DNA of 64,000 nucleotides, taken from positions 62,001 to 126,000 of the forward strand of contig NW_024704856.1 of assembly GCF_018977255.1 (NCBI RefSeq). Reading direction: 5' to 3'. Under the pieces are notes generated by a model. The model worked only from the letters and a program-made list of their open reading frames with translations, was not told where the DNA came from and ran no database searches. The DNA is from Callorhinchus milii (lineage: Eukaryota). The translations under genes were made by a program, and so were the position numbers. How positions within the stretch are numbered: position 1 is the stretch's first letter; every line of letters starts with the position of its first letter. Positions 3,542-64,000 of the stretch are shown here, in pieces.

Positions 3542-6500
3542 TTAATCTGTCACTCGGCAGATCCTCAGAGGCTCAGAGTTTTTGCCGCCGTCGTTCAAAC
3601 CGGGACCGAAGAATGGATAAAGTTTCTCAGTGAAAGTGTTGGTGAAAGTGTGGAGATGAGACATGTTGTCGGCGTTGTAAAAGGTCACCTCTCCCCCCTC
3701 ATAGTCCAGGAACACTCCCACCTTCCCGGGTCTCTCTCTCAGGGGCAGGCGGGTGGGAGGTGACGTCAGAGCTTTATATTCATCCCCGTTTCTCAGTATC
3801 ACAGCCCAGAATCCCTTCTCTGGTGACAGTGTGATCTGTCCTTTCCTGTTGACAGACTCTCGGGCCAATCCCACATCCCACTTGGTCTTGTTGGCCACCT
3901 GCACCTCCCAGTAATGTCTCCCTGATGTGAAGCCCTCAGACCCCAGGACACAGACATATTTACTAAACCTCTTCGGGGAGTCCGGGAGCTGCTGCCGTGT
4001 GTCTCCGTGTCTCACGCTGGTCAGGTCCTCAGACAGGATGAGCGCGGGATGGGCTGTGTCAGGATCCAGAGTCAGAGAGGCCGGAGCTGAGAGAGAGAAA
4101 CAACACCAAGTGGAGTGAGGGGACGTCTGGAGCTCAGACTGTGTGTGAACACATCTAAAGCTGGGGACACAATCCAGCTCAGAGGGTCACAGTCTGTCTG
4201 GGTGGGGGGAGAGGGGTGAGTGCAAGGTTATGTGTGTGGGTGTGTATGAAGGGTATGTGTGTGTGTGAGAGTGAAGTATATGAGATGTATGTGTGTGTGA
4301 GTGCGTGTGTGTTCGTGGGTGTGTGAGTGTGTGCGAGGGCGTGTATGTGTTTGTTTGAGCGTGTGCTTGTGAGTGTGTGTGTGTGAGGTGTATTAGACGG
4401 TGTCTGATTGAGGGTATGTGGGAGGGTATGTGTGAGAATGTGTGTGTGGGGGGGTATGTGTGAGAAGGTATGAGGGAGTGTGTGAGGATGCTTGTGTGTG
4501 ACAGATTGTGATACTTGTCGTATGAGGGTATGTATGAGATTGTGTATGAGGGTTTGTGTGAGTGGTTGCAGTAGGGTGTTTGTGATGTTGTTTGCGTGAG
4601 TGCGTGTGAGGGTATTTGTGAGGTTGTGTGTGATGTTTGTGTTTGTGAGTGTGTGTGAGGGTGTGTTTGAGGGTATGTGTTTGATGGTGTGCATGAGGGT
4701 ACGTGTGAGGGTGTGTGAGGTGCGTGTGAGTGGGGGTGCGAGAGGGTGTGAGAGAAAATGTGTGTGAGTGTGGTTGTAAGACTTGTTGTATGAGTGTGTG
4801 TATGAGGGTGTATACGAGGGTGTGTGTGAGGGGGTGGGAGAGATAATGTGTGTGACGGCTCTTTGTGAACGTGTGTGTGAGCGTGAGGGTGTGTGAGGGT
4901 GTGTGAATTTGTATGTTTGAGTTGCGTGTGTGAGGATGTGTATGATGGTGCGTGTGAGGTTGTGAGTGATGGTGTGTGTGAGTGTGTGTGTGTGAGTGTT
5001 TGTGAGCTTGTGTGTGGTTGAGGTGTATGTGTGATGGTATGTCAGGATGAGCGGCTCTGTGTGAGGTTGTTTGTGTGTATGTGAGTGTGTAAATGGGGGG
5101 TGATTGTGCGTGAAGTGGTGTGAGAGTGTTGTGTGTGTGGTGTTGTGTGAGGATTTGTGTGAGGGTCTGTCTGTGTGTGTGTGTGAGTGGTTGTGTGAGG
5201 GTGTACGTGAGGGTGTTTGTGTTGGTGTGTATGAGGGGTTGTGTGAAGGTGTGGTTGCAAGGGATTGTGTGAATGGGTGTGCGAAGCGTGTGTGGGGGTG
5301 TGTGTGACGGATTATATATGTCAGGATCTGAGTGAGGTTGTGTGTGAGGGTGTGTGTGAAGACGTGTGTGAAGATGCGTGAGAGGGGCTGTGTGATGGTG
5401 CGTCATGGTGTGTGTGTCCGGGTCTGTGTGAGGGTGTCTGTGTGAAGGTGTGTGTGAGGGATTCTGTCAGGGTGTGTGTGAGGGTGTGTGTGAGATTCTG
5501 TGTGAGTGTGTGTGTGAGTGTGTGTATGAGTGTGTGTGAGCGTCTGTGTGATGGTGTGTGTCAGTGTCCGTGCGAGGGTGTGTGTCTGGGTATGTGTGAG
5601 GGTGTGTGTCAGGATGTTTATGTGAGGGTGTGTGTGGGGCTGTTTGAGGCAGTGTGTGTGGGTCTGTGAGAGTGTGTGTGTGAGGGTGTGTTAGATTGTG
5701 TGTGTGTGTGTGGGAGGAATTTTGTGAGCGTGTACATGATGGTGTGTGAGGGGTGAGAAGATTGACATTGTGACCCTCACTGAAAGCTGGATCAGCCCAG
5801 GTGACACCTTACCGCTCACTGAGGCCACACCACCCGCTACACCTACCACCATGTCCCCCGTCCCAACCGTCATGGTGGTGGGGTGACCCTCATTTCCAGG
5901 TTGTCACTTGCCCTGTCCCCCTACTCCACCGGCTCATTCCGCACATTCGTTCACCTTACCCTCTGCAATGTCTCCCACCTCTCTCTAAAAACCCTCCTAA
6001 TTAACTGCCCCAAAAACCCAGCCCCACCTTCACCTCTGACATCTCCACCCTCTCGCCTCCCTCTGCCTCTGCTCCGAACCCCTCATCCTCGGCCAGTTCA
6101 ACATCCACTTCACGCCCTCCTGCTCCACCGCCTCAGACTTGTCTCTTTTCCTGTATGAGGGAAGTGTGTGGGTGGTGTATGTGTGTGAGGTGTGTGAATG
6201 GGTGTGTAAGTTATGGATGTGTGTGAGGTTTGTTTGAGTGATGTGTGTGAAGATATGTGTGAGGGTATTTGGTGTGCTAGGTGAGCATGTGAGGAATGTG
6301 TGTGTGAATGGTCCGTGTGTGAGGGTTGTGTGTATGAGGTGTGTGTTTGAGCTGTGCATGTGAGTGGTGTGTGTATCAGGTGTGTGCATGTGAGGGGCGT
6401 ATGAGTGAGAACTTTGTGTGTATGTGGGAGAAGTAATAATACCCATTGCATTTGATATAGCGCTTTTTATTTCTTCTCGATGTCTCAAAGCACTACAAGG

Positions 6501-9500
6501 AACAGAACGTAAAGTGAATTGACAGTATATTTGTGGGCGAATCGCGGCAGCCAATTACGCACAGCAGTGTCCCACAAACAGCCTTGGAATGAAAAGAACA
6601 ATTTTTTTTCATTTTGGAGTGATTATTGTCAGTCGTTTGGTGTAAAGAAACTCGTCCAAGGTTTCACCCTGCCTGCAATTGAAGCTTGATGTCGATGGTA
6701 CGAGCGGTTATAGAACTCGCTTTGCAAGCGAGAGACCTGAGTTCAATTCCAGGCAGAGGGCGAAACCTTGGGCAAGTTTCCTTACTCCACACAGAGCCTA
6801 ATAATAATCCCTCCAAAACCAAAACCAATAGTAAATTGGTCATCTTCAATCCATGACTGTTTTTGGGACATCGCTGTGCCCAATTGGCTGCCGCGTTCGC
6901 CCACAAACATACAGTCAATTCACTTTACAGTATATTCTGTGAAGCGCTTTGGGACGTCGAGAAGATGTGTAAAGCGCTATATCAAATGCAAGGATTATTT
7001 GTGGAGTCCTGTAGCTCAGTGGTTAGAGCACTCGCTTTGCCAGTGAGTAACTTGAGTTCAAATCTAGACAGGTCAGGGCGAAACCTTGGGCAAGTTTCCT
7101 TACTCCACACGGAGCCTAATAATAATCCCTCCAAAAAACCCAAAACAATAATAAATCGGTCATTTTTAATTTACGACTGTTTGTGGGACATTGCTGTGCG
7201 AAATTGGCTGCCGCGTTCGCCCACAAATATACAATCAATTCGCTTTACAGTGTGTTCTGTGAAACGCTTTGGGACGTCCTCCCGACGTGAAAAGCGTCAT
7301 ATCAAATGCAAAGATTAAAGATTAAAACTAAGTGTCTCGCTTGCAAGGTGAGCGCTCTGAACACTGAACTACAGGAATTCATGAGGTGTGTATGAGGTGT
7401 GTGTGAGAGTGTGCATGTCTGAGGTGCGTGTGCGTGGTCTGTGTGAAGGTTGTGCTTGAGGGTGTGTGTGTTTATATCTGTGTGTGAGAGAGGAGAGTTA
7501 TGTGTTGGGATCCATGTAAATGTGAAGCTGTTGACACGGCTTCAGGATGAGAATGGGAGACATTTACCTGGGCTGATGCCGTGTATCATCTGTCTCCAGG
7601 CTGTGTACTGTATAGGCCCTTTGTATATCCCCACAGGCAGCTCAGCCTCACACACCGACAGATCAAACCCCTCGTTACTGACCCTGAAATAAGACAAAAT
7701 CACATTATAAAGTGAAACTGCATCTTGTGGGTTTGTGGGTTCAATTCTGGGATATTTGGTAAAGATCATTTCATACCTTGTGTTGCCAGCGGCTTCCTCC
7801 TAATGAAATCAAACACAGACAGATGTCAGCCCACACTGAGACGCGACATGACAAACTCAGTCACCCATCATAGAATTCCGCATCACACAGTTTACTTTCA
7901 TATTTACAGCAACGTTTCTCACTCAAACGACACGGCTTCCGGATACAAAGCAACAAGAAAGTGGGGGCCAGATCTGCTCCACGAAAACCCAAGTTACCTT
8001 CTTGTGTGTGGTGCAAGGGAAAGGGTGTGTGGTACTCAGGGTCTCCTCGAAGCTGAACTGGCCCATAGGTGGCAAGCATGGTAATGAAATATGGAAATGA
8101 AGCCAGGCCTCTTAGATGGTCTATAGCCATATTATCACAGGGTACTCAGTGCTGATGGCAGCACAGCCCGGCCTGGCTCATCGGAAGGACCAGAGAGGGC
8201 CAACCACTTACTGGGGGATGGAAATCCTCCCATTCAGTTCCTGTTAATCCGACAGCGAAATCCCCAACTGGAGGGTATGTGGATTTAGATGGTTAGACTC
8301 CAGCAGTTACCGAACACAAAAAGCGTGCTCCCCCTAAATCTTTGTTCTGGACAACCTCGGGCTTAATCATTACAGAATGAGGTAAATAGGATTTGAGCTT
8401 TCGGATAGAGAGAGCTCATACCATCTCAACCGTTTATCTCTGGGATTTTCATGCGTGGGTGGAATTCTCAGTGTGGTTTGGATAAACTGAATGACGGTGA
8501 TGGGTTTCCACATGTATTGTACACACGGCTCACCAAAACAATCATTACACTCACAGTGCGACCTGCTTAAAAACACACACCAGAATATAACAAACAATTC
8601 ATCACTGATCTGTGTAACAGTCAGATTGTGATTGTCTGCCCCAGACTGTGTGTAACTGTGACTGAACTACATTATAAGGTCACCTCATTACCTGCAGGAA
8701 GGTGAGATCCTCTTTTTTCATCTGCGTCTGTAACTCGGAGAGCTCTTGTTGAGTAGAATCTAATTTGCCCTGAATCTCTCGCAGATTTATCTCCATTCGT
8801 TTTAAAATCTCCTCCTCTCGCTGTCTGAGATCTCGCATCACTCGCTGCTCTATGTCAGTCAGACTCTGGTGCATTTTAGCAAACTCAGCCGTGACTTGGG
8901 TCTCCAGACTCTTCACCTTTTCCTGCAAATGTCAGACATCAAATTATTTCACACAGTAAACAGAGTCACTGAGCCAACCACATCGTATACACACAGTAAT
9001 CAGAGACACTGAGACATCAAACCGTGTACACACAGTAACCAGAGATACTGAGACACCACAGCGTATACACACAGTAACCAGAGACACTGAGATATCACAA
9101 CGGGTACACACAGTAAATTGAGAAACTGAGATATCAGTTGTTAAATCTCACCTTCAGTTGTGAAATCTTTTCTCTCTGTTTGGCTTCAGCTTTTAGAGCA
9201 GTTTCCTTCCTCTGTGTGAGAGAATCTAAGACGTGTTTCACTTTATCCTGGAATAAATACACAGAATTAAAGTGTTTGTGTGTGAAAATATCAAGCCGAA
9301 TAGATATACTCCCTCTTCAGGTATATTCTTACCTTGTAGAATTGAACAGCTTCCTCAATGGGGAGGAAACTGTGACCTCTGTGTTCCTGCCCATGACTGC
9401 AAACTACACACAGCAATTTCATGTCAGATTCACAGAACAGCTTCAGTTGCTCCCGGTGTTTCTCACAGTGAAGTTTATTTTCCGTCTGTGTCGGGGTCAG

Positions 9501-9743
9501 GCCCAATTTTCGTGCTTTCTCTGCTAGACTCGCCAAGGCCCAACTGGCTGTGAGGTTCTTTTCTGGAAATGTCTCCTGACAAACAGCGCAGCAGTTGTTC
9601 TCCTGCTTTTCCCAGCTCCGGGTGACACAGGAGCGACAGAAGTTGTGGCCACAGCCCAGACTAACAGGATCAGTGAAGAAATCCAGACAAACCGGGCAAA
9701 TGATCTCTTCGGTCCAGATCTCAGCCGGGAGTCCAGAAGCCAT
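3542..9743 (-). CDS. TRIM-A: RING-B-box2-coiled coil-PRY/SPRY(B30.2) E3 ligase (TRIM39/TRIM27/nuclear factor 7/A33-like), 473 aa, intact
   Basis: Exons 9743-9333 (411), 9247-9152 (96), 8922-8692 (231), 7799-7777 (23), 7683-7568 (116), 4086-3542 (545); all GT-AG and in frame (1422 nt). C3HC4 RING CPVC..CGHNFC..C..CAVC, B-box2 [20 protein letters not shown] / GRHYWEV / VGVFLDY B30.2 motifs; 96/231/23/116 exon sizes are typical of class IV TRIMs. Confidence 0.93.
4200..5750. repeat. GT-rich low-complexity tract (TRIM-A intron 5)
   Basis: Degenerate (GT)n / gtgtgagg units. Confidence 0.85.
5755..6155 (+). mobile_element. L2 LINE relic, AP-endonuclease region
   Basis: Translates as [25 protein letters not shown]..., resembling the L2 ORF2 APE N-terminus; frameshifted. 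Confidence 0.55.
6433..7382. mobile_element. Nested SINEs: a minus-strand SINE (6433-6685 plus 7325-7382) split by two plus-strand copies (about 6700-6998 and 7000-7320)
   Basis: Tail/body and head of the minus copy lie either side of two tandem plus copies. Confidence 0.8.
8950..9135. repeat. 39-bp minisatellite in TRIM-A intron 2
   Basis: Unit acacagtaaccagagacactgagacatcacaccgtgtac, about 4-5 copies. Confidence 0.85.
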
Positions 9744-9755: not shown

Positions 9756-9788
9756 CACTTCCTGATTGAAACTGGTTTCGGTTTCAGT
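9756..9788 (-). promoter_or_regulatory. ISRE/IRF element plus ETS site upstream of TRIM-A ATG
   Basis: Minus strand reads actGAAACCGAAACCagtttcaatCAGGAAGTG, within 45 nt of the ATG. Confidence 0.65.
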
Positions 9789-10169: not shown

Positions 10170-10450
10170 TGTGGCCGGGTCAGTTGTGTTGAAGGAGGTG
10201 GCGGACGAATGGCCGTGTAAGGCAATGAGGGCTTTTGAAATTGAAGGCATGGTCGACGACAAAGACCTTCAGACGGGACTTGAAGGATGTGAGGCAGAGG
10301 AAACGCAGGTAGAGTTGGAGAGTGTGGGGACAGAGATGCTGAATGTCTGACCTCCAATGGTGGGGTGGGAATTGCGGGTGAACTAAAACAGGCCGGTGTC
10401 TGCCGAGTGGAGGGAGCAGACTTTCTGATATGCTTTTATGAAGTAAAAGA
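10170..10450 (-). mobile_element. Old L2 3' fragment upstream of TRIM-A (shared with TRIM-C and TRIM-D flanks)
   Basis: Similar to the L2 3' ORF end (ggaggtcagacattcagc...ccccacactc); paralogous copies at about 34530-34840 and 40430-40730. Confidence 0.6.
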
Positions 10451-10509
10451 AGTAGGGGGGAATAAGACCATGGAGGTGCCTTGAATGAAGGACAAGGCTG
10501 TTCTTTGAG

Positions 10510-12870
10510 CAACTGGGCTGGTCTCTATGTAACTGGTCTTCTCGCTGTATTAAGCCTGGTCTCTATATAACTCACCATGGGTCTGCATGACAGGCTTGAT
10601 CTCTGCATAACGGGCCTGGTCTGTTTATAACAGCTTGGATTCTGTATAGCTGCCTGGCCTCTGTATAACTGACCAGGGCTCTTTATAACAGTTCTGGTCT
10701 CTGTAGGAAATCTTTGCACAGTGTACAACTGGCTTCATGTCTGTGCAACATCACTGTTCTCTGTTAAAAAGCTCTGGTCTCTGCATAATAGACTTGGTCT
10801 CTGTAAAATTGGCCGAGTGTCTGCATACCAGGCCTGGTCTCTTTATAATAGGCGTAGCCTATGTATAACTGGCCTGATCTCTGTATAAGAACCTCGTATA
10901 TGTATATCGGCTTGGTTTTTGTAAATATGTCCTGGTCTCATATAACAGATCTGGTCTCTGTATAACCGGCCTGGCCTTAGTAAAACTGGCCTTGGCTCTG
11001 CATAACAAACCTGGTTTCTATAGAACAGCAGTGCTCTCTTTTTAACAGGCCTTGACTTTGTATCACAGCTTGAAGTCTGTGTAATAGGCCTGGTCTCTGT
11101 ATAACAGATCTGGTCTCTGTTTAATAGGCCAGGTCTCGCTATAAACTTCTGACCAAGGGTCGTGGAGCAGAAACTTTGACTCACTTTCGTTTCTCCATAG
11201 ATGCTGCCTCACCTGCTGAGTTTTCCCAGCTCTCTCTGTTTATATTTCAGATTTGAGCATCTGCAGTATTTTGTGTTTTGCTCGCTATAACTTCTTGGTC
11301 TATATACAAGAGGCCTGATCTCTACGTAACAGCCGGTTCTCTGTATAACAAGTCTTATCTCTGCAAAGCTCCCTGGTCTCTGTATGAAATGACTGATTCC
11401 TGTATAAATTGTGTAGTTTCTGTGTAACTGGCCTGGACTCTTTATAACAAGTCTGGACTCTGTACGGTCTCTGTATAACTAGACTCGTCTCTGTATAACA
11501 GCTGGTCTGTGTAGAACTGTCCGGTCCTCTGTATAGGAGGCCGAGTCTCCGTATAATTGGCCTCATATCTGTGTAAAAGCTTGGTCTCTGTATAACAGGC
11601 CTTGTTTATCAACAAAAGGCCTAGTTTCTGTATGAGGTGCCTGGTCTCTATAAAAGAGCACTGGTCGCCATATAATAGTATGTCTGCTATCTGTGTAACA
11701 TCCTGGTCCCTGTATAACAGGATTAGTCTGTACATAAAAGGCCGCGTCTCTGAATAACAGCACTGGTGTATGTACAGCAGCACTGTTCTCTGTATAACGG
11801 AACTGGTCTATCAATAATAGCCTAGTCTTTGCGTAGCATGACTGGACTATTTATGATAGGCCTGGTTTCTGTATCACAGCTGGTCTCTGCACAACAGGCT
11901 TTGAATACCTATAAAAGACCTGGTCTTTGTATTAGAGATCTCGTCTCTTTACACGAGAACTGGTCTACATATAACAGCCTAGATCCTATGCAACCAGCGT
12001 AGTCTATGTATAATATTCTTGTGCCCTCTATAACAGTCTCGTCTCTGTAAAACAATCCTTGTGAATGTATAATAGACCTGCTTTCTGTATAATAGCCTCC
12101 TCTCTGTATTATTGGCCTAATCTATGTATAATAGGTATATTCTATGTATTACAGGCCAAGTGTATGTGTAAAAGGTTTGCTGTCTGTTTAACAGCACTGG
12201 TACTTGTACAACAGGACCCGTTTCTTTGCAACAGCACTGTTCTGTGTATAATAGACCTTGTCTATCAATAGCAGCCTAGTATTTACACGACATGCTCGGT
12301 CTGTATATAAGTGACCTGGTTCCTGTGTCGCATTCCGGTCTCTGTTCAACAGTCCTGGTGTCTGCATAACAGGCTTTGACTGGGTATAAAAGGCCTAGTC
12401 TTTGTTTAAGAGGCCTAGTATCTTTGCAAGAGCACTGGTTTACATATAACAGCCGAGACCATATATAATAGCCTAGACTATGTATAATAGGCTTGCTGCA
12501 TGTAGAAAAAGGTTGTCTCTGTCAAACAGGCCTTGCATATGTCTAGCAGGGCTGCATTCTATAAAACAACCCAAGTCTCTGTCTAATCGGCCTAATCTAT
12601 GTATAAACGGTCTGTTCTATTTATAACAGTCGTGGTGTCCATACAGCTGCCTGGTCTCTGTGTAAGAGGCCTAAGATATGTACAACAGTCCTGTTCTTTG
12701 TATAACAGGGAAGATCTGTGTAAACCAACCTGGTCTCTGTATAAAAGGACTAGGTTTTGTGTAACAGGCCAGGTCACTGTATAACAGACCTGGATTCTGT
12801 GCAACAGTCCGGGTTTCTGTGTAAAATATTGCTCTCTGTATAAATAGCCCAGTCTCTGTAAAACAGAAAC
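10510..12870. repeat. Degenerate ~20-bp satellite (ggcctggtctctgtataaca)
   Basis: Recurrent ctggtctctgtataacagg motif at about 20-nt spacing over 2.3 kb. Confidence 0.85.
11151..11280 (+). mobile_element. 130-bp short retro-insertion with target-site duplication (Penelope-terminal-like)
   Basis: Flanked by ctcgctataa(a)cttct (11135-11150 and 11281-11295); body ...agatgctgcctcacctgctgagttttcccagc...gcatctgcag. Confidence 0.65.
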
Positions 12871-13269: not shown

Positions 13270-13620
13270 AGAGAGGACACGGCGACCACTGGTCAGTCAC
13301 AGTCTCTCTCTGTCCCTCTCTCTCTGTGCCGTCACAATCACAGCCACAGCCTGCGGCACAGACCCGGAAACTACAGCTCCCGGCATGCCTCACGGCTCAG
13401 AGCCCTCTGGTGACGGGGCCGGTCCGCGCGGGGCATCCTGGGAGCTGTAGTCAGTGTGAGAGACAGAGACACAGAGACAGACACATGTCCACACAGTCTC
13501 TGTCTCTGTGTCTCTGTGTCTGTCTCTCTCACTGACTGAGTTGGGGAATGAGGGACATGTCCTGACTCTCTGATGTTGATCTGCAGTGTTTGTGCTGGTG
13601 TCAGAGGAGGAGAGATTCAG
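13270..13620. promoter_or_regulatory. Regulatory module: ETS, inverted pair of ZNF143/THAP11-type motifs and a central CTCF-like site
   Basis: ccggaaACTACAGCTCCCGGCATGC (13370-13388); reverse copy GCATCCTGGGAGCTGTAGT (13433-13451); minus-strand TCACCAGAGGGC (13402-13413). Confidence 0.65.
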
Positions 13621-13629: not shown

Positions 13630-15237
13630 TCTGTCAGAGAGTGTGAGTGAGTGTCAGAGAGTGTGAGTGAGTGTCAGAGAGTGTGAGTGAGTGTCAGAGA
13701 GTGTGAGTGAGTGTCAGAGAGTGTGAGTGAGTGTCAGAGAGTGTGAGTGAGTGTCAGAGAGTGTGAGTGAGTGTCAGAGAGTGTGAGTGAGTGTCAGAGA
13801 GTGTGAGTGAGTGTCAGAGAGTGTGAGTGAGTGTCAGAGAGTGTGAGTGAGTGTCAGAGAGTGTGAGTGAGTGTCAGAGAGTGTGAGTGAGTGTCAGAGA
13901 GTGTGAGTGAGTGTCAGAGAGTGTGAGTGAGTGTCAGAGAGTGTGAGTGAGTGTCGGAGAGTGTGAGTGAGCGTCAGAGAGTGTGAGTGAGTGTCGGAGA
14001 GTGTGAGTGAGTGTCGGAGAGTGTGAGTGAGTGTCAGAGAGTGTGAGTGAGTGTCAGAGAGTGTGAGTGAGTGTCGGAGAGTGTGAGTGAGTGTCAGAGA
14101 GTGTGAGTGAGTGTCGGAGAGTGTGAGTGAGTGTCAGAGAGTGTGAGTGAGTGTCAGAGAGTGTGAGTGAGTGTCAGAGAGTGTGAGTGAGTGTCAGAGA
14201 GTGTGAGTGAGTGTCAGAGAGTGTGAGTGAGTGTCAGAGAGTGTGAGTGAGTGTCAGAGAGTGTGAGTGAGTGTCAGAGAGTGTGAGTGAGTGTCAGAGA
14301 GTGTGAGTGAGTGTCAGAGAGTGTGAGTGAGTGTCAGAGAGTGTGAGTGAGTGTTGGAGAGTGAGAGTGGGAGCTGTAGTCAGAGTGAGAGACAGAGAGT
14401 GTGACAGTGTTTGTGGGTGTCAGAGAGTGTGAGTGAGTGTCAGAGAGTGTGAGTGAGTGTCAGAGAGTGTGAGTGAGTGTCGGAGAGTGTGAGTGAGTGT
14501 CGGAGAGTGTGAGTGAGTGTCGCAGAGTGTGAGTGAGTGTCGGAGAGTGTGAGTGAGTGTCGGAGAGTGTGAGTGAGTGTCAGAGAGTGTGAGTGAGTGT
14601 CAGAGAGTGTGAGTGAGTGTCGGAGAGTGTGAGTGAGTGTCGGAGAGTGTGAGTGAGTGTCAGAGAGTGTGAGTGAGTGTCAGAGAGTGTGAGTGAGTGT
14701 CGGAGAGTGTGAGTGAGTGTCGGAGAGTGTGAGTGAGTGTCGGAGAGTGTGAGTGAGTGTCGGAGAGTGTGAGTGAGTGTCAGAGAGTGTGAGTGAGTGT
14801 CGGAGAGTGAGTGAGTGTCAGAGAGTGTGAGTGAGTGTCGGAGAGTGTGAGTGAGTGTCGGAGAGTGTGAGTGAGTGTCGGAGAGTGTGAGTGAGTGTCA
14901 GAGAGTGTGAGTGAGTGTCGGAGAGTGTGAGTGAGTGTCAGAGAGTGTGAGTGAGTGTCAGAGAGTGTGAGTGAGTGTCAGAGAGTGTGAGTGAGTGTCA
15001 GAGAGTGTGAGTGAGTGTCAGAGAGTGTGAGTGAGCGTCAGAGAGTGTGAGTGAGTGTCGGAGAGTGTGAGTGAGTGTCGGAGAGTGTGAGTGAGTGTCA
15101 GAGAGTGTGAGTGAGTGTCAGAGAGTGTGAGTGAGTGTCAGAGAGTGTGAGTGAGTGTCAGAGAGTGTGAGTGAGTGTCGGAGAGTGTGAGTGAGTGTCG
15201 GAGAGTGTGAGTGAGTGTCAGAGAGTGTGAGTGAGTG
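13630..15237. repeat. 20-bp tandem repeat (GAGTGTGAGTGAGTGTCAGA)n, roughly 75-80 copies
   Basis: Near-perfect 20-nt period with an A/G variant; one interruption at about 14355-14420. Confidence 0.97.
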
Positions 15238-15239
15238 AT

Positions 15240-15990
15240 CAAAGAGAATCAGCATTGATTGGTGAACAGTGCGAAAAAAGAAAGTGCATCGAATTGGAGG
15301 TAAATCGCGGAGATGTGCGGAGCCATCCGTTACGGATCCCAAAAATAGCCGATCACATCATTTACTGAGCGGTGAAAAATTTAGCACTGCGGGAGGACAA
15401 ATGTGTTTGGGTGTCCACGTCCACACGTTGTTAAATATAAGCTCTAATTTGCAACAGAAGGTCAAAAATACAAACTGGTTGTTGTTGGTCTTTATCTCAA
15501 CGATAGAGGAGAGGAATTGATGCTTCAAACATACAGAAACTTGGTCATGTTCTATCTGGAGTAATGCGTTCAGTTTTGGGTATCGCACCTCATGAAGGAT
15601 ATATTGAGATTGGATGTGATATATCGAAGAATAATCAGAATGATAACAGGACTCAAATGGATAAATTATATAGGAAGATTGCAAAAGCTTCTACTCAAAT
15701 CCTTTCTGCTTCCAAGGTTGAGAGGCGCTCTGGTTGAGGATTTTAAATCGATAACTTGATTCATTAGTGTATGTACCGATAACCTTTTCCTCTGGTTGGG
15801 AAATCCAAAATAGGGAGACACGAAATTAAGATGCAAAGGTCGGCCATTTACGAGTGACATTTAGTGACCGCATTTGATCCAAAGTGCAGTTGCAACCTGG
15901 AACTTTCTCCCTTAAATGCTCAATCCATTGACATGTTGAATGCTCAGTTGGGTCGATATACTTTAGTTCGGGGCATTAAGGGTCACTGCG
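15240..15990 (+). mobile_element. CR1-like LINE 3' relic
   Basis: gtgtccacgtccac..., gtaatgcgttcagttttggg, gttgcaacctggaac resemble the CR1 ORF2 C-terminus and 3' UTR; no intact ORF. Confidence 0.5.
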
Positions 15991-17949: not shown

Positions 17950-18002
17950 ACTGTGAGTGAGAAACGGGGATCAATGTGAAGCGCTGACCTCACCTCGTAT
18001 CA
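17950..18002 (+). pseudogene. Small relic of a TRIM SPRY exon
   Basis: Encodes VRNGDQCEALTSPR versus [14 protein letters not shown] in TRIM-A; same position as the larger relic at 44390-44772. Confidence 0.6.
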
Positions 18003-18225
18003 GACAGCGTGTGCCGGTGCGGGTGCGCCTGTGCGTCTGTCTGCGTGTGAGTATGTGTATACAATTATGCTTTACAATATTCTGCACTACCACATCATTC
18101 AAAAAGTGCGGAGAGTTTCTTCTGCTGTCCCGGCTGACGACCCACCAAATTAAAATTGGACGCCCTCTTCACGGCAAATTGAGTGCCACGTTGACCTACT
18201 CAATACCCAGTCTCAATGCTTTACA

Positions 18226-47340: not shown

Positions 47341-50300
47341 TTACTTAAATAGTTTAAATATGTGTTTAAACGGATAGATCACTAGATATTTCACATCCTC
47401 TCTGAACTTAGATTGTGTTGAAGCGTAAATGACGGTGTTTGTGCAGCAACTCAAAACTTTAAGAATGTCTGTCACTTGTTCGACAACATACACTGGGTCT
47501 CTGTAACTTAGATAGTAATAACTGTTTAACGTTCGCATTAATATGAAATGTAAAACTTCCATCAGCCACAACAGGATGAAGCTGCCTGATATGGCGAAGA
47601 GTAAGATGATGGATCTTCTTCGGTTCTCCATCTCTGCATCATTGCCGCTATTACTTTTCTGTTGCAGGAGGTTACTGCGGATTCTGTTGGCAGCTAAAAT
47701 GTGTCTGACTGTCACCACGTTCATCAGCAAAATCAGAAAGAATGGAACAAACGGTGTTATTATTGTGACAAACCAGTGAAATACAATGCATATGGGAGAG
47801 GCGTAGTAAACAGCTTTGAACTTGCAATACCAAGGCACGTTGTTCAGTATCTCTCTGTGCTCAAACATAAAGTACCAGGGAATGCTGATGAAACAGCTCA
47901 AAGAGGAAATCACTCCTACAATCACGGCTGATGTTCTCTCGGTGCAATAACTTGTTTTCAGTTTCACCCAACAGATGGCGACCAGGCGATCAAAGGTGAA
48001 AGCCACTGTGAACCAGACAGACATGTGTTTCACCGCCGACATCAGCACCAATCTGAGTGAACACACGGGAGTGATGTCCAGAAATGTGTGATTGAAATAC
48101 AGAGTATGTATCTGGTTCAAAACCACATCGTTGATGGCGAACAGGAGATCGGCCACTGCCATGGCCACCATGTAGAGGGTGATACATTTTGAGAGCCCAC
48201 ACTTTGCTCGGGACAGTACCACAATGGCCAACAGATTCGCTGTGAGAAAACGGAACAGCAGATAAACATATTTACCTGTGCGCTGCGTACATATTTACCC
48301 CAGGCGCGGACACCAGCAGCATCCAAGGCTGCACTCTCCACCTCGCAAAGCCAGTCAGGAACCTCGGCGTTTTGTTCGACCCTGAGCTGTCCTTTCTCCC
48401 TCACATCCGCACCACAACTGGCACCGCCTTCCATCACCTCCGGAACATCGCCAGACTACGGCATTACCTCACCCCTCACGCTGCTGAAACTCTGGTCCAC
48501 GCCTTTGTCACCTCAAGGCTGGACTATGGGAACTGTCTCCTCGCCGGCCTTCCCGCCACCTCCCTCCACAAGCTGCAGGTCATTCAGAACTCTGCAGCTC
48601 GTGTACTGTCCCGCACCAGGCTTCGGGACCACATCACTCCCACCCTCGCTCGCCTCCACTGGCTCCCCATCCCCCAGAGGATTGATTTCAAGATCCTCAT
48701 CCTCACCTACAAGGCCATTCACGGCCTTGCTCCCTCCTACCTCTCCGAACTACTATCCCCCTACCTACCTGCCCGTACCCTCCGTTCCTCTGGCTCTGGT
48801 CTGCTCCACGTCCCCCGCCCCAATCGCCCTACCATCGGTGGTCGGGCCTTCAGCCTCTCAGCCCCCAGGCTCTGGAACTCTATCCCCCAGTGCCTTCGCC
48901 TTGCTTCCTCCCTTTCCTCCTTCAAGGCCGGTCTCAAAACCTTTCTCTTTGACCGAGCCTTCAGCTCCCCTCTCGACTCTCTTCCCCCTCCTCGCTCCCT
49001 CCCTTCCCTCCCATTACCCTGACCATTTCCCCCCTGCTCGGGTCATGACCCAACTGTGCAGCGCCTTGGGATGTCCTCCTGACGTGAAAGGCGCTTTATA
49101 AATGGAATCTTGTTGTTGTTGTTGTTGTTGTAAGTTGATGGTATTTTGCTCAAAGTTCCTTCACGCAGCAGTTTCCCATCAATACTCATGGATCATGAGT
49201 ATTGATGGGTACATAAAAAAAAATTCAAGGCATTAGTGAGCAATATTGAAATGATTCAACACAGGTATCTCGAATGCCAGGCGACTTCGGTAACCACTGA
49301 GCTGCAGCTATTATTTAACCAATGAAGTACAGACGAAAATAACCGGTAATATGTAAGAAGTTCTACCTAATTCCCCGTTAGTCGCCTTTTCTGTGGGTCA
49401 TGAAAGGTCCCCTGTGACACAACCAGAAAATCTAATGAACTATCTCCAAATTTCCTGGCCATGTATACACCAAATAAAGTTTGTATCCTCAAATATTTAT
49501 TGCGCTTCTCTCGTTACAATCATGTTACTTTCTGATAGGATAATGTCAAGTATATGCATTGCGTATAATCTGAAAGATGTGGACTTCATTTAATGTCAAT
49601 GTGTGGAGCTGCAGGTGAGAACATAAAGCCGAAAATTCGCTTCCACTCATTGAAGATAACGCTAAAAATTCCACTCTATTAATATGAAAATGTTCGTCTC
49701 ACGCACAGCACAATTCGCAATAACGTCAAAATAAATCAAGGGCACAACCGTGCTATTTATGGTCAGACAACGAAAATTTCGAGATGCTCAAATATTTTTC
49801 TCACTTGTCACCCCAACCCCCTCCATGCACAACATCCAGCTCGTTCAAAACAATTCCAACCATGTCCACTCTCACAAAATCTCCGCAAACCCTTCACTCC
49901 AGTCCTCGACACGATTCCCTGCATCCTTTCCAGAAAACACATTGATATAAAGATATTCAAAATACTTGCAAACCATTCCTTGCACTGACATACCTCTGTC
50001 TCTCAACCTACTGACAGAATTGGCTCGCTCATCTATTCAATCCTTCCTCACCACCAGACATTCTTACAGCCAATGTGTCCTGAAACACTGGAGTCTCAAT
50101 GTCCCCAACTCACTCTTTGAGCGACCGTCAGATCAGACCGAAAGATATTCTTTTAGGACTGTACCTAGGGTCACCATTGTAACACGCGTAGTAACGGGCA
50201 GACCCTCAAAGAAGAAGGGACAAATTATAAGTCTCACAGCGAGAGTGGAGAGGGTTCAGCAAACGACAATATCTTATCTTTATAGAGACATCAAAAAATA

Positions 50301-50508
50301 CATCAGCGGAACAGAAGACACATCTGGAGAAGTAGAAGGAGATGTGTGTGCCATGTGCAAACTTGTGGTACATCGGGATACAAGTAAAAATTTTATCTAA
50401 CTAATTACCTGCAATACCAATTGCTGCAAGAATAGGATAATAAATTATCATTATCCGAAAAAGTGTTGGCAGATACTGCCACGGAAAGAAGGCTATGGCC
50501 TTCAACAT
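47341..50508 (-). CDS. GPCR2: GPR139-like class A 7TM receptor, 332 aa
   Basis: Exon 1 50508-50409 (100 nt, MLKAIAFFPWQYLPTLFRIMIIYYPILAAIGIA), exon 2 48239-47341 (899 nt); 999 nt in frame; close paralog of GPCR1. Confidence 0.9.
48300..49130 (+). mobile_element. Young L2 LINE 3' fragment (RT C-terminal region) in the GPCR2 intron
   Basis: Open 216-aa frame: LVHAFVTSRLDYGN.LLAGLP..LQVIQNSAARV..LHWLP..FKAGLKTFLF; (TTG)n tail. Confidence 0.93.
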
Positions 50509-53639: not shown

Positions 53640-54340
53640 CATAGGATCACAGCATTATACAGAGCAGAAGGAGGCCATTCAGACCACACTGTCTTTGCCG
53701 GCTATCTGAAAGCGACTATCCAAGTCAACTCTACTCACCTGCACTCTCCCAATAGTTCAGGAGAGTTTCCCTCCCCCCCCCCCCCCCACCCCCCCACCCC
53801 CACCTCGCCCCACCCTCACCCTCACATAATTAGTTTGGATTGAATCGGTTTCCAAAACCCGTTCACGCAATGCATTTCAGATGGAAGCAACTTGCTGCTT
53901 GGAAATAATTTTCATCTTCTCCCATCTGTTTCTTTCAGCAACTATTTTAAGTTGTGCCCTTTCGTTACCGACCGACAAGCCAGTGGCAAAATTTTCTCCT
54001 TATTTACTCTGTTTCAGCCCCTCAAAATTGGGAATACTTCTATTAACTCAACACTTAAACTTCTTTGCTCCAGGGAGATTAATGCTTCCATGGCCTCTCC
54101 TGATAACTGAAGTTGCTATATCCTGGTACCATCCTGGTCAATCTCATTTGCATCCTGTGCAATGCCTTGACATCCTTCCTGATGTTTGGAGCCGTGATCC
54201 GAAAACAGTACAATAGCTGAGGCTCAACCAATGATTTATATCAGTACGTCATATATTCCTGACGTTTGTATAATATGCCTCTGTTGATCAAGCTTGGAAT
54301 CTAGTCCGCTTTTTTTGAAAGAGTTTTCTACCTGTCCTAC
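53640..54340 (-). mobile_element. CR1-like LINE 3' relic
   Basis: gcagaaggaggccattc..., atcctggtaccatcctggtcaatct, gccttgacatccttcct motifs. Confidence 0.5.
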
Positions 54341-54649
54341 CACCTTCAGACAGGCCCTGCTTTCTTTATCATATCCTGATCGCTGTATAACAGGCCTCGT
54401 ATAAATATAACAGTCTGATCTGTCATCAAGTCATGCATATTGTGACCGTTGGTGACGAGTGTAGTGAGGGAGAGAGATCGAAAATTGGTAGCACCACAAA
54501 GACACACAGAGAGAGGCAGAGAGAGAAACAGAGAGTGGGAATTATTTTTCAAAGTGAAGAATTTTTTTCAAAACGCCCAGTTTTTATTATTAATATTATT
54601 TATTATTTATTGATTATTATTCACTTACTANTTTTTAATGTCTCTTATT

Positions 54650-54875
54650 CAAAATCACTAAAAAGCCTAACAATAATCCCTGNAAAAAAAATCATAAAAT
54701 TGTTAATTTGAACCGACGACTGTTTGTGGGGACGCTGCAGTGCGCAATTGGCTGTCGCGTTTCACCACAAATATTCAGTCACTACACCTTATCGTCTATT
54801 CTGTGAAGCGCATCGAGACGTCGAGAAGCTGTGATAAGGCACTGTATCCAATGCAAAGTTTTATTGTTATTATTT
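54650..54875 (+). mobile_element. 5'-truncated SINE (paralog of 13040-13265)
   Basis: Same position in the duplicated block. Confidence 0.7.
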
Positions 54876-54879
54876 TTGA

Positions 54880-55230
54880 AGAGAGAGGACATGGCGACCA
54901 CTGGTCAGTCACAGTCACTCTCTGTCCCTCTCTGTGCCGTCACAATCACAGCCACAGCCTGCGGCACAGACCCGGAAACTACAGCTCCCGGCATGCCTCA
55001 CGGCTCAGGCCCTCTGGTGACGGGTTCGGGCCGCGCGGCGCATCCTGGGAGCTGTAGGCAGTGTGAGAGACAGAGACACAGAGAAAGACACATGTCCACA
55101 CAGTCTCTGTCTCTGTGTCTCTGTGTCTGTCTCTCTCTCTGACTGAGTTGGGGAAAGCGGGGAATGTACTGACTCTCTGATGTTGATCTGCAGTGTTTGT
55201 GCTGGTGTCAGAGGAGGTTAGATTCAGGGG
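54880..55230. promoter_or_regulatory. Second copy of the ZNF143-CTCF-ZNF143-like module
   Basis: ACTACAGCTCCCGGCATGC at 54978-54996; reverse copy at 55040-55058; colinear with 13270-13620. Confidence 0.65.
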
Positions 55231-55449
55231 CATCTCACACACACACACTGTCTATCTCTGTTTATGACACACACACTGTCCCTCTCTGTCTCACACACAT
55301 AGTCTCTCTGCCTCTCGCACTCAGTGTCTCTATCTCAAACACATATATTCTCTCTGTCTCTCACACACACAGTCTCTCTGACTCTCACACGCACAGTCCC
55401 TCTCCATCTCTCGCATACAGAGTATTTGTCTGTCTCTCACAAAGAGCCA

Positions 55450-56140
55450 ACAACAACAACGATAACCATTTGGATTTAGAGAGAGCCCCCCCAGGCCAGA
55501 CGGCGTTTCGGAGGGCATCACAGTAACGGATCCCGGGGTCGAGCCAGTGGGAGGGGGAGGAAGGTGACCAAAGTCACGGTCGAAAAGAAAGATCTTCAGC
55601 CGAGATTTGAAAATAGTATGAGAGGGGGCAAGACGGAGGGAGAGAGGAAGGGAGGTCCAGAGCCTCGGGGAGCAGTGGCTGAAGGAACGGCTGCCGATGG
55701 TGGAGCGGAGAAATTGGGGGACAATGAGGAGGCCATAACCGATGGCGCGATGGCAACTTGTACTGCTTTGCGGAGAGAGGGCAGAGAAGTCGGGTGGTGT
55801 AGAGGAGAGGAGGGATTTGAAAACAAGATTGAGGGTCTTGAAGTCGATCCACTGTGGGACAGGGAGCCAGTGCAGTCTGCCACGGACTGGGGTAATCGGA
55901 GAGCGGAGTTTGTTGCGGGTACAAATACTGGCGACAGATTATTGTACGCACTGTGTTTTACGGATGGCCGTGGGGGGAGGCCGGCGAGGAGGGCGTTGGA
56001 ATAGTGCAGCCGAGAATTGACAACGGCATAGACCAGAGTTTCTTCGTCTTTTGAGTGAGGTATTGGCGGAGACGGGCGATGCGTCGGAGGTGGAAGAAAG
56101 CTGTGTTGCTGATGGGGAGCGGATGCTGGGGAGGAAGGAT
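55450..56140 (-). mobile_element. Older L2 LINE 3' fragment (continues at about 56450-56650 past a SINE)
   Basis: AFFHLRRIARLR..ETLVYAVVNSRLHYSNALLAGLP; WIYANFLQLNVDMTE. Confidence 0.8.
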
Positions 56141-56142
56141 AA

Positions 56143-56445
56143 TTAATAGTAATAATACTTCCATTTGATATAGCGCTTTTCTCGTCGAGAGGACGTCCCA
56201 AAGCGCTTCACAGAACACACTGTAAAGTGAATTGACTGTATATTTGTGGGCGAACGCGGCAGCCAATTGCGCACATCAATGTCCCACAAACAGTCGTAGA
56301 TTGAAAATGACCAATTTATTATTGTTTTTGGGGGGATTATTTTTATGTGAGTGGAGAAAGGAAACTTGCCCAAGGTTTCGCCCTGCCTGGAATTGAACTC
56401 AGGTCTCTCGCTTGCAAAACCAGTGCTCTAACCACTGAGCTACAG
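56143..56445 (-). mobile_element. SINE copy inserted in L2
   Basis: Reverse-complement full SINE. Confidence 0.88.
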
Positions 56446-57144
56446 GGCTGCATTTGGGCGTCGAATCTGTCGCATGGGTTGCGTATAGGTTGGGAGAGAT
56501 TTAGGGGAACGTCAGGTAAACGGAGGAGGTGAGAACTGTGCCATTTTAGACGCTGTCGAGAGCCAAATAGTGTGGCTTCCGTCATGTCAACGTTCAGCTG
56601 AAGGAAATTCGCGTAAATCCAGCTCCTGAGGTCTGACACAACGAGGGACCACGAGGGATATGGAGAAGGTTGGAACCAGTTGAGGGGATGGAGCGCGTTT
56701 TTTGGTCAGTGGTGTAAACAGGTCAGAAAGGAAGGGAGTTGAAGCAATTTGGAAAATAGCTTGAGGATTTTGAAATCGACCCGTTCGCAGACGGGGATTC
56801 AGTAAACCGTGGCTAGAAATTGCGTGAAGGGGTTATAGAATATATTACAGCGTGGTATTGGATGAGTTGGATCCTCTGACTGGTGGAACTGGGGAAATCG
56901 GCAAAGACTGTATTTGAGAAGTCCTGTCAGGCGGTGAAGAATGCATTGTCCAGTGGTCAACAAGAGTGATTCAGGATATGGAGGGAAGTACAAAAACAGG
57001 AGGAATTCTTTGTGCCCCTCGAGCCTGTTGCATGTTCTATTCATCATTCCTGGTCTCCACCTCGAGTCCCATCAGCCACCCAACTCAATATCCCTTAATA
57101 CTCTCACCTAACAAATATCAATTCAACTCAGCCTTCAATATATT

Positions 57145-57475
57145 AGTAATAATAATCATAATCCTTGCATTTGATATATTGCGCTTCACGTCGGCAGGAT
57201 GTCCCAAAGCGCTTCACACAACATACTGTAAAGTGAATTGACTGTATATTTGTGGGCGAACGCGGCAGCCAATTGCGCACAGCATTATCCCACAAACAGT
57301 CGTAGATTGAACATGACCAACTTGTTATTGTTTTTGGTTTTGGAGGGATTATTATCACGCGTCTGTGTGAAGTAAGGAAACTTGCTCAAGGTTTTGCCGT
57401 GACCTGCCGGGGATTGAACTCAGGTCTCTTCGCTTGTAAAGCGAGTGCTCTAACCACTGAGATACAGGACTCCAC
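57145..57475 (-). mobile_element. SINE copy
   Basis: Reverse-complement full SINE. Confidence 0.88.
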
Positions 57476-57479
57476 GAAT

Positions 57480-59110
57480 ATGTCAACGGATTGGGGGCAT
57501 CGACAGCGTTTTTTGGCAGAACGTTCCAGATTTTCACGACATTTTTGGATCAAAATCGGCCTCTTGATTTCACCCTAAAATGGCCAAACTCTCATTTCAA
57601 GTGTGTGTCTCCCTGTCTTGGATTCCCCAACAAGAGGATATAGTGCGTCAGTACATACCCTAATCAATAAATTTATCGATCTCAAAACCTCAAGCAAATC
57701 GTCTCTCAACATTGTAAGCAGAAAGGATTAGAGAACAAGTTTTTGCGAACTGTCTGCATAATTTAGCCATTGCAGCCTTTTTGTCCTTCTGTTTAGTCTT
57801 CGATCTACCAACATATCCTTCCTGAGCTGCGATGCCCAAAACTGAACGCATTACTCCAGAGAGAAACTGACCAAGATTCTATATGTTTGAGGGATCATTT
57901 CTTCTTCTCTATATTCCAACCACCTTGAGATAAAGGCCCAGATCCCGTTTTACTTTTTTATAACCTCTTGCCAATGTACTCTTATTTTTAGTAAGTTCTG
58001 TACGTGGACATCCAACCACATTTGCTCTTCTGCAGTGCTAATATTGTCACCACTTAGTAAATAAACTGTTTTGTATTTTCGGACCTATAATGTATGACCT
58101 CGCACTTCCCAACATTGAATTGCACCTGCCACAGTGCTGCCCACTCCTTAAATCTAGCTAAATCCCTTTGCATCTTCCTGCACCCATCTACACAATTAAA
58201 TGTGGCTGCTAAACTTGTGTCATTTGCAAATTTGAATGCACATCTCTATGTTCCTTCTCACAAGTCAATTCTATATAAATAAAAATAAAAATCCTGTCAA
58301 ACAAATCAATAAATACTTAAAGTAATAAAAGAAATGAAAGAAATCAAAGAAATAAAATAAATAAAAAACATAAACAAATAAACAAATAAACAAACTAACT
58401 AATATCAACGAACTGAAAATGGAGAAAACAATGACACAAAGTTATTGTTTTGTACACGCTGCCTCCATATGAAGCACGTTCTGAGGGAATTTGGTACAGA
58501 GATTGATGAACATGACAAGAGTTGATTAAAAACCAGAATTAAATGAGGAGGCCCAGAACAGACACTTTCGGGAATCGCTTGTTGGGTCCTCCCAAACAGA
58601 GAAGTTTCCTTTATCACTTCTATCCGTTTCCTGCTCCCCATTCAATTACCAGCATATCGCAATTTACCTCCCATTCCATGCACATTATTTTTTTGCAAAT
58701 AACATTTTATGCGGAGCCTTATCAAAGGCTTCTTGGAAGCCCATGTAGAAACCATCCATCTCTCACCCACCATGTTAGTGGCCGCCTTAAACATGGCAAT
58801 TGGAACCGTCAGGCATTTCACACTATTCAGTAATCCATGCTGACTCCCTTTGATCAGCTCATATTTGAACAAGTACTCAATCCCTTCAACCCTGATGAGA
58901 GATTCCAGTAACTTTATCACGACTCAACTTAAGCTGACAAGCTTGTTGTCACCTGGTTTCCCTCTCTCTGCCTCCCACAAATCTTACGCGATGGAGTGAC
59001 ATTTGCAATTCGCCAATCCAATGGTACAGTTCCCGAATATAGAGAAGCGTTGGAAAATTATGACTAATGCATCTATCCCAATTTCCTGCACAACTTATTT
59101 TCGCACCTTG
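57480..59110 (-). mobile_element. CR1-like LINE relics
   Basis: cccaaaactgaacgcattactccag; gtgtcatttgcaaa (F-A-N/D-D-T motif on minus); LIKGSQHG. Confidence 0.55.
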
Positions 59111-62934: not shown

Positions 62935-63034
62935 ATGTTGAGAGCGTTAGCCTTCTTTCCTTGGCAGTATCTGCCAACACTTTTTCGGATAATGATAGTT
63001 TATTATCCTATTCTTGCAGCTATCGGTATTGCAG
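62935..63034 (+). CDS. GPCR3 exon 1 (GPR139-like paralog; exon 2 expected beyond the window)
   Basis: 100 nt, MLRALAFFPWQYLPTLFRIMIVYYPILAAIGIA, then gtaatt donor; flanks are the reverse complement of GPCR2 flanks. Confidence 0.85.
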
Positions 63035-64000
63035 GTAATTAGTTAGATACAAATTTTACTTGTATCCCGATGTACCACAAGGTTGCGCATGGCACACACA
63101 TCTGCTTCTCCAGCTGTGACTTTTCTTCCACTGAGGTCTTTTTGATGTCTCTATAAAGATAAGATATTGTCGTTTGCTGAACCCGCTCCCCTCTCGCTGT
63201 GAGACTGATAGTGTGTCTCTTCTTCTTTGAGGGTCTGCTCGTTACTATGTGTGTTACAATGGTGACCGTAGGTACAGTCCTAAAAGAATATCTTTCCGTC
63301 TAATCTGACGGGCGCTCAAAAGGGTGTGAGTTGGAGACATTGAGCCTCCAGTGTTTCAGGACACATTGGCTGTAAGAATGTCTGGTGGTGAGGAAGGATT
63401 GATCGGATGAGCGACCCAGTTCTGTCAGTAGGTTGAGAGACAGAGGTATGCCAGGGCAGGGAATGGTTTGCAAATATTTTGAGTATCTTTATTTTAATGT
63501 GTTTTCTGGAAAGGAGGCAGGGAATCCTAGCGAGGACTGGAGTGAAAGGTGTGCGGAGATTGTATGAGAGTGGACATGTTTGGAATTGTTTTCAATGAGT
63601 TGGATGTTGTGAATGGAGGGGGTTGGGGTGACCAGTGAGAAAAATATTGGACAATCTCGAAATTTTCGGTGTCTGACTATAAATAGCTCGATTAAGCCCT
63701 CTGTTTCTTTTGACGTTATTGCGAATTATGCTGTGTGTGAGGCGAATTCTTTTCACATTATACAGTGGATTTTTAACGCCATCTTCAATTAGTGGAAGTG
63801 AATATTCGGATTTATGTTCTCATCTGCAGGAACACATGTTGATACTAAATAGGTTCCACATCTTTAAGATTATATTCAATGCATATACTTGACAATATCC
63901 TGTCAGATGTTAACATGATTGCAACCAGAGAAACGCAATAAATATTTGAGGATACACACTTTATTCGGTGTATACATGGCCAGGAAATGTGGACATAGTT

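Follow-up and report, generated by a model that had tools for sequence, protein, structure and literature searches.

In mammals, the TRIM5 cluster (TRIM6/34/5/22), whose TRIMs are interferon-inducible, is flanked by olfactory receptor arrays, and the part of the report available to us claims no functional module (PMC2151084). In zebrafish, the fintrim/btr and NLR-B30.2 families are interspersed with multi-zinc-finger genes, as far as the accessible text of PMC4852459 goes. We analysed a 64,000-nucleotide stretch of the Callorhinchus milii genome (contig NW_024704856.1, positions 62,001 to 126,000; this whole stretch is called the window below), in which four TRIM genes for RING, B-box, likely coiled-coil and B30.2 proteins (TRIM A to D) and two dead SPRY fragments are interleaved with two intact genes for class A G protein-coupled receptors (GPCRs; GPCR1 and GPCR2, or G1 and G2) and the first exon of a third (GPCR3, or G3). 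The locus is probably a birth-and-death cluster in which two independent multigene families are intermixed, and not a functional module.

It resembles the TRIM6/34/5/22 cluster in that B30.2 TRIMs are gained, lost and pseudogenised in a lineage-specific way next to tandem class A GPCRs (PMC2151084, in part), but its receptors are non-olfactory and interleaved with the TRIMs instead of flanking them, and a dead SPRY piece lies within the GPCR repeat. With the zebrafish families it shares local duplication, gene conversion, B30.2 exchange and mixing with an unrelated expanded family (PMC4852459, in part); the C. milii TRIMs, however, have one B-box, and their companion family consists of GPCRs. 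A true cassette of both families would be the first linked TRIM-GPCR immune module, but the evidence favours ordinary hitch-hiking. Our literature search, which had incomplete coverage with most subscription papers outside its reach, found no paper on this receptor family or on TRIM-GPCR linkage.

A sequence-only reading of the window had proposed that a TRIM and a GPCR family expand as one linked unit, a cassette present twice. The order behind this proposal, TRIM (-), old L2-like relic, degenerate 20-bp satellite, SPRY relic (+), hAT-like piece and GPCR (-), is indeed seen in both units; the units themselves are discontinuous. Within the window, the TRIM block of unit 1 aligns with that of unit 2 (9145-11130 with 39410-41392, 81% identity), and so does the GPCR block of SPRY relic, hAT relic and receptor gene (17931-23876 with 44500-51498, 69-82% identity). 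Between them, the two spacers (13050-17930 and 42620-44500) have only matches of a short interspersed nuclear element (SINE) and no unique homology in common, and the unit-1 spacer matches the G2-G3 region instead, in seven pieces that are partly inverted. Far upstream, TRIM A and TRIM D are unlike each other, D's element E being common to C and B and not to A. Kimura two-parameter distances in the 5' flank (A-D 0.167, A-C 0.158) put A no closer to D than to C, and the distances between G1 and G2 in the 3' flank and distal intron (0.33-0.35) are about twice as large as these.

TRIM C and TRIM D form an inverted repeat (31323-35843 with 43691-39410), and their distance rises from 0.012 in intron 1 over 0.07 in the 5' flank to 0.14-0.15 distally, a gradient such as arm-to-arm gene conversion would be expected to leave. 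The exons of related genes are mosaics as well: paralog P0155 equals TRIM A at 137/137 residues in exon 1, yet at 154/180 in the PRY-SPRY, and paralog P0177 equals TRIM B at 246/246 residues in exons 1-3, yet at 126/148 in the PRY-SPRY. Because such paralogs share exons 1-3 but differ in their PRY-SPRY exons, exchange, or mis-assembly, at TRIM intron 5 is suggested. The comparisons show live TRIMs that evidently duplicate and exchange sequence mostly among themselves, and a TRIM block and a GPCR block evidently made into mosaics by unequal duplications, inversions and patchy homogenisation.

The GPCR block includes a piece of a TRIM that is neither A nor D. The SPRY relic lies on the strand opposite to both and is 0.38 distant from TRIM A exon 6; with TRIM A and TRIM B still 89.7% identical, the relic must, on these distances, be older than the A-B split. 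Contigs from the DNA-type sequencing runs X1 and X2 (three each) join position 45031 straight to 45704, without the young L2-like insertion between relic and hAT-like piece, and therefore other genomic copies also connect the relic side with the GPCR side. To judge from this arrangement, the TRIM and GPCR families must have been neighbours since before the GPCR1/GPCR2 duplication, the passenger being a pseudogene fragment. The sequence-only reading had left the choice between a co-regulated module and hitch-hiking; the dead fragment that travels with the GPCR speaks for the latter, and an interferon-stimulated response element (ISRE)-like motif confined to the TRIMs speaks against the former.

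We propose that unequal crossing-over, inversion and conversion would shuffle the blocks in an unstable, repeat-rich region, with the GPCR block carrying as its passenger what is left of an older, convergently oriented TRIM, namely its dead 3' end. From what is known of their families, the TRIMs would be interferon-inducible cytosolic E3 ligases that bind their targets via a variable PRY-SPRY and are driven by a proximal ISRE and ETS site, and the GPCRs would be cell-surface receptors transcribed from promoters of their own, conserved on the side that faces the G protein and responding to diverse ligands from outside (peptides or small molecules). Both families may tolerate and use copy-number turnover, and could for this reason accumulate in the same region.

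Linkage in other cartilaginous fishes, suggested earlier as a check, is rare in our lists: of the 102 GPCR rows listed for 12 elasmobranch species, 3 are on a contig that also has a TRIM row in our lists, counted among the best 120 rows per search and excluding rows without a contig and species absent from either list. In C. milii, a listed GPCR is present on 1 of 11 listed TRIM-bearing contigs. In the horn shark, the 31 listed GPCR rows are spread over 10 contigs and the 5 listed TRIM rows fall on a single one, and four consecutive accessions on this TRIM-bearing contig (XP_067865206-209) are all GPCRs. With non-homologous spacers, a TRIM A no closer to D than to C, and most elasmobranch GPCRs on contigs without a listed TRIM, expansion as a linked unit is not borne out. 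The main text of PMC10751288 contains none of the terms 'TRIM', 'GPR', 'B30.2' and 'A33' (its supplements were not searched), and linkage to the major histocompatibility complex is not established; a term search of the supplement of PMC3964593 gave no match to 'B30.2' or 'SPRY'.

The motif GAAANNGAAA, which we call ISRE-like for its resemblance to the consensus, as with the ETS-like and ZNF143/SBS-like labels, lies at -42 from the ATG in three of the four TRIMs (A, C and D), beside an ETS-like GGAAG. The site is mutated in TRIM B, and GAAANNGAAA was found within 1 kb of none of the three GPCR starts. It is only the position of this motif that is telling, not its count. Such promoters would make these TRIMs candidate chondrichthyan interferon-stimulated restriction factors, and an E3 ligase or antiviral activity of the window TRIMs is suggested by their family and by this motif. 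TRIM B may be regulated differently from the other TRIMs, because its 5' flank is replaced and its ISRE-like site mutated; the flank stops 140 bp above the ATG (30493-30495), where it is joined to an element E copy facing TRIM C. The ZNF143-like pair was the other of the two motifs compared between TRIMs and GPCRs. One copy lies 3.6 kb upstream of TRIM A and the other, without TRIM exons, 4.4 kb upstream of GPCR2, and the pair is possibly a stray promoter. The two copies (13370-13451 and 54978-55058) have a 93% conserved core with an adjacent GGAA.

Several observations weigh against two independently duplicating families, and some of them would also fit one old segmental duplication that moved live TRIM and GPCR together (A with G1, D with G2), with the spacer replaced later by inversions, insertions and conversion and the linkage historical and neutral. 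Order, orientation and similar spacing are kept in both units, and synonymous distances are alike (dS 0.19 for A-D exon 1, 0.215 for G1-G2). Non-coding distances overlap, with 0.29 in the proximal A-D satellite and 0.27 in intron 1 set against 0.21 in the G1-G2 5' flank, and with overall ranges of 0.17-0.29 for TRIM and 0.21-0.35 for GPCR parts; distances near 0.35 are rough, the aligner giving ~70% identity over ~470, not 600, sites even on shuffled input. TRIM-TRIM conversion could moreover have lowered the A-D distance. Because the synonymous distances are so similar, a joint duplication that was later scrambled is conceivable, but we consider it unlikely: the spacers lack unique homology, the far upstream block of A matches the region 5' of G2 whereas that of D matches C and B, and A is equally close to C and D. 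The scarcity of shared contigs is likewise qualified by a coarse proxy, which works at contig level, tells contigs apart by their size in bp and misses pseudogenes. The horn-shark TRIM contig holds many of these GPCRs too, a Mustelus receptor-containing model (P0314, outside the 102 rows) lies on a contig equal in size to that of Mustelus TRIMs, and the 146-kb C. milii contig carries further TRIMs and another GPCR. The three ISRE-like sites, finally, are homologous copies of one, and their window-wide count of three is not above chance (15 of 100 shuffles).

A co-regulated immune module, for example with the ligase controlling the receptor or with both acting in one leukocyte response, appears highly improbable to us. 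It could draw on the repeated adjacency, on the variable recognition surfaces of both families and on the copy of TRIM A's upstream ZNF143-like block 5' of GPCR2. Human TRIM58 and OR2W3, too, share transcripts, which their authors, in the part of the report available, read partly as a by-product of splicing (PMC3566163); by analogy, such neighbours may become coupled by accident. Against a module speak the confinement of the ISRE-like motif to the TRIMs, the broken state of TRIM D, the TRIM beside the intact GPCR2, and the position of most family members of sharks and rays, whose contigs have no TRIM in our lists. Also, the GPCR aims at the TRIM 5' end from 7-10 kb away, and the two thus have no shared promoter.

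It is hardly credible that the repeated units are an assembly artefact, that is, haplotypes or collapsed repeats placed twice. A 71-bp non-homologous tag accompanies each of the two scaffold gaps, and C and D are 92% identical around one of the gaps; but the units differ by 14-31% (69-86% identity) with independent SINE and L2-like insertions, and X1/X2 contigs agree with parts of unit 2 to within 0-2 differences in about 200-320 bp. Both TRIM-GPCR neighbourhoods sit within gap-free stretches, which makes their adjacency independent of scaffolding. An artefact fits the cut ends of B and D alone, where it is probable. The match of the TRIM B SPRY exon to A ends exactly 71 bp before the first gap, and that of D to C at the very same distance from the second; neither tag has a match elsewhere in the window, and the two are mutually unrelated. 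The equal offset at both gaps suggests that the tags are probably an assembly by-product able to fake gene truncation. The missing ends of B, C and D adjoin gaps and are therefore no evidence of decay. No exon 6 of TRIM C was found in the window ahead of the gap; it would fall at or past the same gap as the missing exons of D. Sequencing-run contigs with a base at 39462 probably come from paralogs.

The earlier statement that most TRIM copies decay is accordingly borne out for C and D (two of four, with deletions and a Cys-to-Gly change), and not for B, which is open over 441 codons, or the intact A. The lesion in TRIM C exon 3 is probably old and real, because paralog P0170 reads the identical shifted residues. 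In Pfam searches, a RING of the zf-C3HC4 family is above cut-off in A, B, C and D (one Cys replaced by Gly in D), and the B-box PF00643 is present in all four. The coiled coil is represented by TRIM_CC at 15.3 bits (residues 156-247, under the cut-off of 30) and by further weak coiled-coil matches. Set against class C-IV, which we take to be the TRIMs with a PRY-SPRY, the C-terminal PRY-SPRY is full in TRIM A, cut in B and outside the window for C and D; the PRY and SPRY profiles, too, score above their Pfam cut-offs. Teleost finTRIMs have two B-boxes, and an identity with them was rejected on the single B-box stretch found by Pfam in each window TRIM protein. TRIM A equals RefSeq XP_042201770.1 at 473/473 residues, and the same 146,321-bp C. 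milii contig carries this entry, XP_042201776.1 and the TRIMs XP_042201772, 779 and 781/782; RefSeq names the matching TRIMs 'zinc-binding protein A33-like / nuclear factor 7-like'.

Both sequencing runs guessed to be RNA, and neither DNA-type run, contain a joint that leaves out TRIM intron 1 (CT..AC ends, + strand), so that TRIM-family transcripts are probably spliced as modelled; at a neighbouring joint, the letters are those with which TRIM A exon 2 begins. Among the matches listed there was no splice joint of a GPCR; one X10 contig there ends at the exon-2 acceptor with 113 letters unplaced and other X10 contigs span the intron. Contig depth divided by an assumed single-copy depth of ~37 is ~21-28 for TRIM exons 1-2, 56-91 for GPCR exons, 7-9 for the TRIM 5' flank, 17-23 for the SPRY relic and 12-26 for most GPCR non-coding bins; these values are no copy numbers, and at most they hint at two multicopy families in a ratio other than 1:1.

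The receptor expansion is a better lead than the cassette. The parts of PMC11979771 at hand report very few canonical olfactory receptors in cartilaginous fishes (in the catshark, 2 olfactory receptor and 6 olfactory receptor-like genes), yet database relatives of the window receptors number 2,118 at E<=1e-20 (out of 5,581 candidates), the best 120 of these relatives are all chondrichthyan, and the receptors vary on the ligand side. As the sequence-only reading had stated, both full copies are intact (329 and 332 amino acids, canonical splice sites). Of the third copy with matching flanks, exon 1 (62935-63034), its 5' flank and part of the intron are present, and a complete gene is not; any TRIM partner of this copy would be located past the window end. 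For exon 2, GPCR1 is 99% identical to XP_007883484.1, and GPCR2 equals XP_042201776.1 at 299/299 residues. XP_042201777.1, from the same contig as the latter, matches GPCR3 exon 1 at only 29/33 residues and hence represents a further receptor gene. The class A assignment agrees with Pfam 7tm_1 (PF00001; E 2e-23 and 8e-21 for GPCR1 and GPCR2, above cut-off) and with an AlphaFold model of exon 2 (pLDDT 76), which has seven transmembrane helices plus helix 8 in a class A fold and a beta-hairpin in the second outer loop; its best Foldseek matches are peptide receptors, with a TM-score of about 0.7. The receptors have DRL, LWxM (no proline) and NTVIY instead of the canonical DRY, CWxP and NPxxY, and the family as a whole conserves D-R, W, N-T and Y.

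The name GPR139-like stands for a distant resemblance. Among solved structures, human GPR139 (PDB 7VUG, 9M42) matches best in sequence along the whole seven-transmembrane region, with TRHR second; a GPR139 ortholog was rejected on a pairwise E of 3.5e-7, level with CX3CR1 (7.7e-7), and on 64 bits against the family profile, compared with 202 bits for salamander, 184 for coelacanth and 165 for teleost proteins. Unlike GPR139, the C. milii receptor lacks the proline of the W-x-P motif in transmembrane helix 6 and belongs to a highly multicopy family. The salamander, coelacanth and teleost proteins P0343, P0351, P0354 and P0373 carry the RefSeq name 'probable GPR139'. This name thus seems, from the profile scores, to cover a separate orphan group. 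A review describes an 'Orphan 139-like' group of non-human vertebrates beside GPR139/142 and TRHR, with members and ligand 'unclear', and its section 12, the part available, makes no mention of a chondrichthyan expansion (PMC5207463). To equate the C. milii family with this group is a guess, the review giving no sequences; TRHR is our second-best structure match. In a tree without true GPR139/GPR142, a salamander pair is sister to the clade with the chondrichthyan rows (support 99/99). In a separate grouping, 10 of 11 C. milii rows, including the window genes, fall together with full support and to the exclusion of every shark and ray row; this array is therefore a chimaera-lineage expansion. 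Atlas neighbours of the receptor are FMRFamide-receptor-like and Srw-bearing clusters (0.96-0.98). Such receptors have expanded in invertebrates, to about 450 in Lymnaea, in tandem clusters with repeats and incomplete copies, as in C. milii (PMC11589774, in part); the C. milii family, by contrast, is a vertebrate one.

GPCR1 and GPCR2 differ at 53/157 outer-half versus 17/172 inner-half residues (p=1.7e-7), with dN/dS of 0.92 and 0.23, respectively, and column entropy gives the outer-half bias again in 10 C. milii and 107 elasmobranch sequences. This pattern is consistent with purifying selection where the receptor couples to G proteins, and with relaxed or diversifying selection where it binds ligands; dN/dS in the receptor pocket (1.29) is not significantly above 1 and does not establish positive selection there. 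Tentatively, the receptors misnamed 'probable GPR139' might constitute a large undescribed repertoire of cartilaginous fishes that arose by separate expansions, in chimaeras on one side and in sharks and rays on the other, of an orphan receptor with close salamander relatives, and that is diversifying on its ligand-binding half; it could be the missing chemosensory family of animals with so few olfactory receptors, or else a leukocyte receptor family for microbial peptides, evolving alongside interferon-induced TRIMs.

Features of the window, with positions counted from its first letter
Feature	Position	Strand	Remarks
TRIM A	3542..9743	-	six exons, intact, 473 amino acids, RING/B-box/likely coiled-coil/PRY-SPRY (exon models, Pfam)
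TRIM A exons 1-6	9333-9743, 9152-9247, 8692-8922, 7777-7799, 7568-7683, 3542-4086	-	canonical splice sites
ISRE-like GAAACCGAAAC	9775..9785	-	42 bp before TRIM A ATG, then ETS-like GGAAG
Old L2-like relic	10240..10489		approximate limits; upstream of TRIM A; homology to copies 34523-34770, 40497-40728
Degenerate 20-bp satellite	10545..12830		upstream of TRIM A; copies 32499-34383, 40785-42563
ZNF143/SBS-like motif pair	13370..13451		inverted; within block duplicated at 54506-55235
Near-perfect 20-bp tandem array	13632..15246		80 copies, 95% matches; unit 1 only
SPRY relic, unit 1	17931..18028	+	short, ~70-100 bp; adjoins GPCR1 3' end
hAT-like relic, unit 1	18068..18279		common to both GPCR units
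GPCR1	19341..22051	-	two exons (21952-22051, 19341-20230); intact class A, 329 amino acids
30-N gap and 71-bp non-homologous tag	25165-25194, 25195-25265		cuts SPRY exon of TRIM B
TRIM B	25266..30351	-	frame open 441 codons; end cut near assembly gap
Element E	30495-30851, 31415-31960; 43044-43590		tandem copies; third copy upstream of TRIM D; none upstream of TRIM A
ISRE-like motif	35203..35213	+	before TRIM C
TRIM C exons 1-5	35245..37180	+	exon 3 with 2-bp deletion
30-N gap and second 71-bp non-homologous tag	39309-39338, 39339-39409		centre of C/D inverted repeat
TRIM D exons 1-2	39417..40007	-	Cys-to-Gly in RING; exon 2 with 1-bp deletion; twin of C in inverted orientation
ISRE-like motif	40039..40049	-	before TRIM D
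SPRY relic, unit 2	44500..44770	+	frameshifted; ~70% to TRIM A exon 6; faces GPCR2 3' end
Young L2-like insertion	45034..45700		between relic and hAT-like piece; some other genomic copies without it
hAT-like relic, unit 2	45944..46156
GPCR2	47341..50508	-	two exons (50409-50508, 47341-48239); intact, 332 amino acids; intron L2-like insertion ~48290-49130
Scrambled homolog of TRIM A-GPCR1 spacer	53668..58062		satellite remnant, SINE, ZNF143-like pair 54978-55058, LINE-like pieces; no TRIM exons
GPCR3 exon 1	62935..63034	+	5' flank back to ~60500; partial intron to window end

Several repeats accompany the TRIM genes. Long degenerate CA-rich tracts fill intron 5, directly ahead of the PRY-SPRY exon (4190-5760, 25800-28500 and 37230-39308), and intron 2 holds a 39-bp minisatellite of 4.8 copies in A (8950-9136), 12.3 in B (29235-29714) and 16.7 in C (35857-36500). 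Directly 3' of TRIM A, a GC-rich, CpG-containing segment (2750-3200) with TGACGTCA and GGGCGG motifs and a possible minus-strand donor site could represent a further gene's promoter and first exon.

L2 and hAT are presumably the right labels, given the resemblance in motifs; neither the L2-like nor the hAT-like pieces had a Pfam match. Young L2-like insertions at 33865-34126, 45034-45700 and 48290-49130 have (CAA)n tails, two of the copies are 96% identical, and one lies 50 bp from the GPCR2 exon-2 acceptor. An Rfam search of the window found only the tRNA-like heads of SINEs, in seven copies. The SINE of ~330 bp is present in many copies (1955-2290, 6430-7320, 16320-16530, 21219-21465, 27313-27650, 37800-38130, 43690-44010, 56135-56460, 57135-57480 and 59225-59550).

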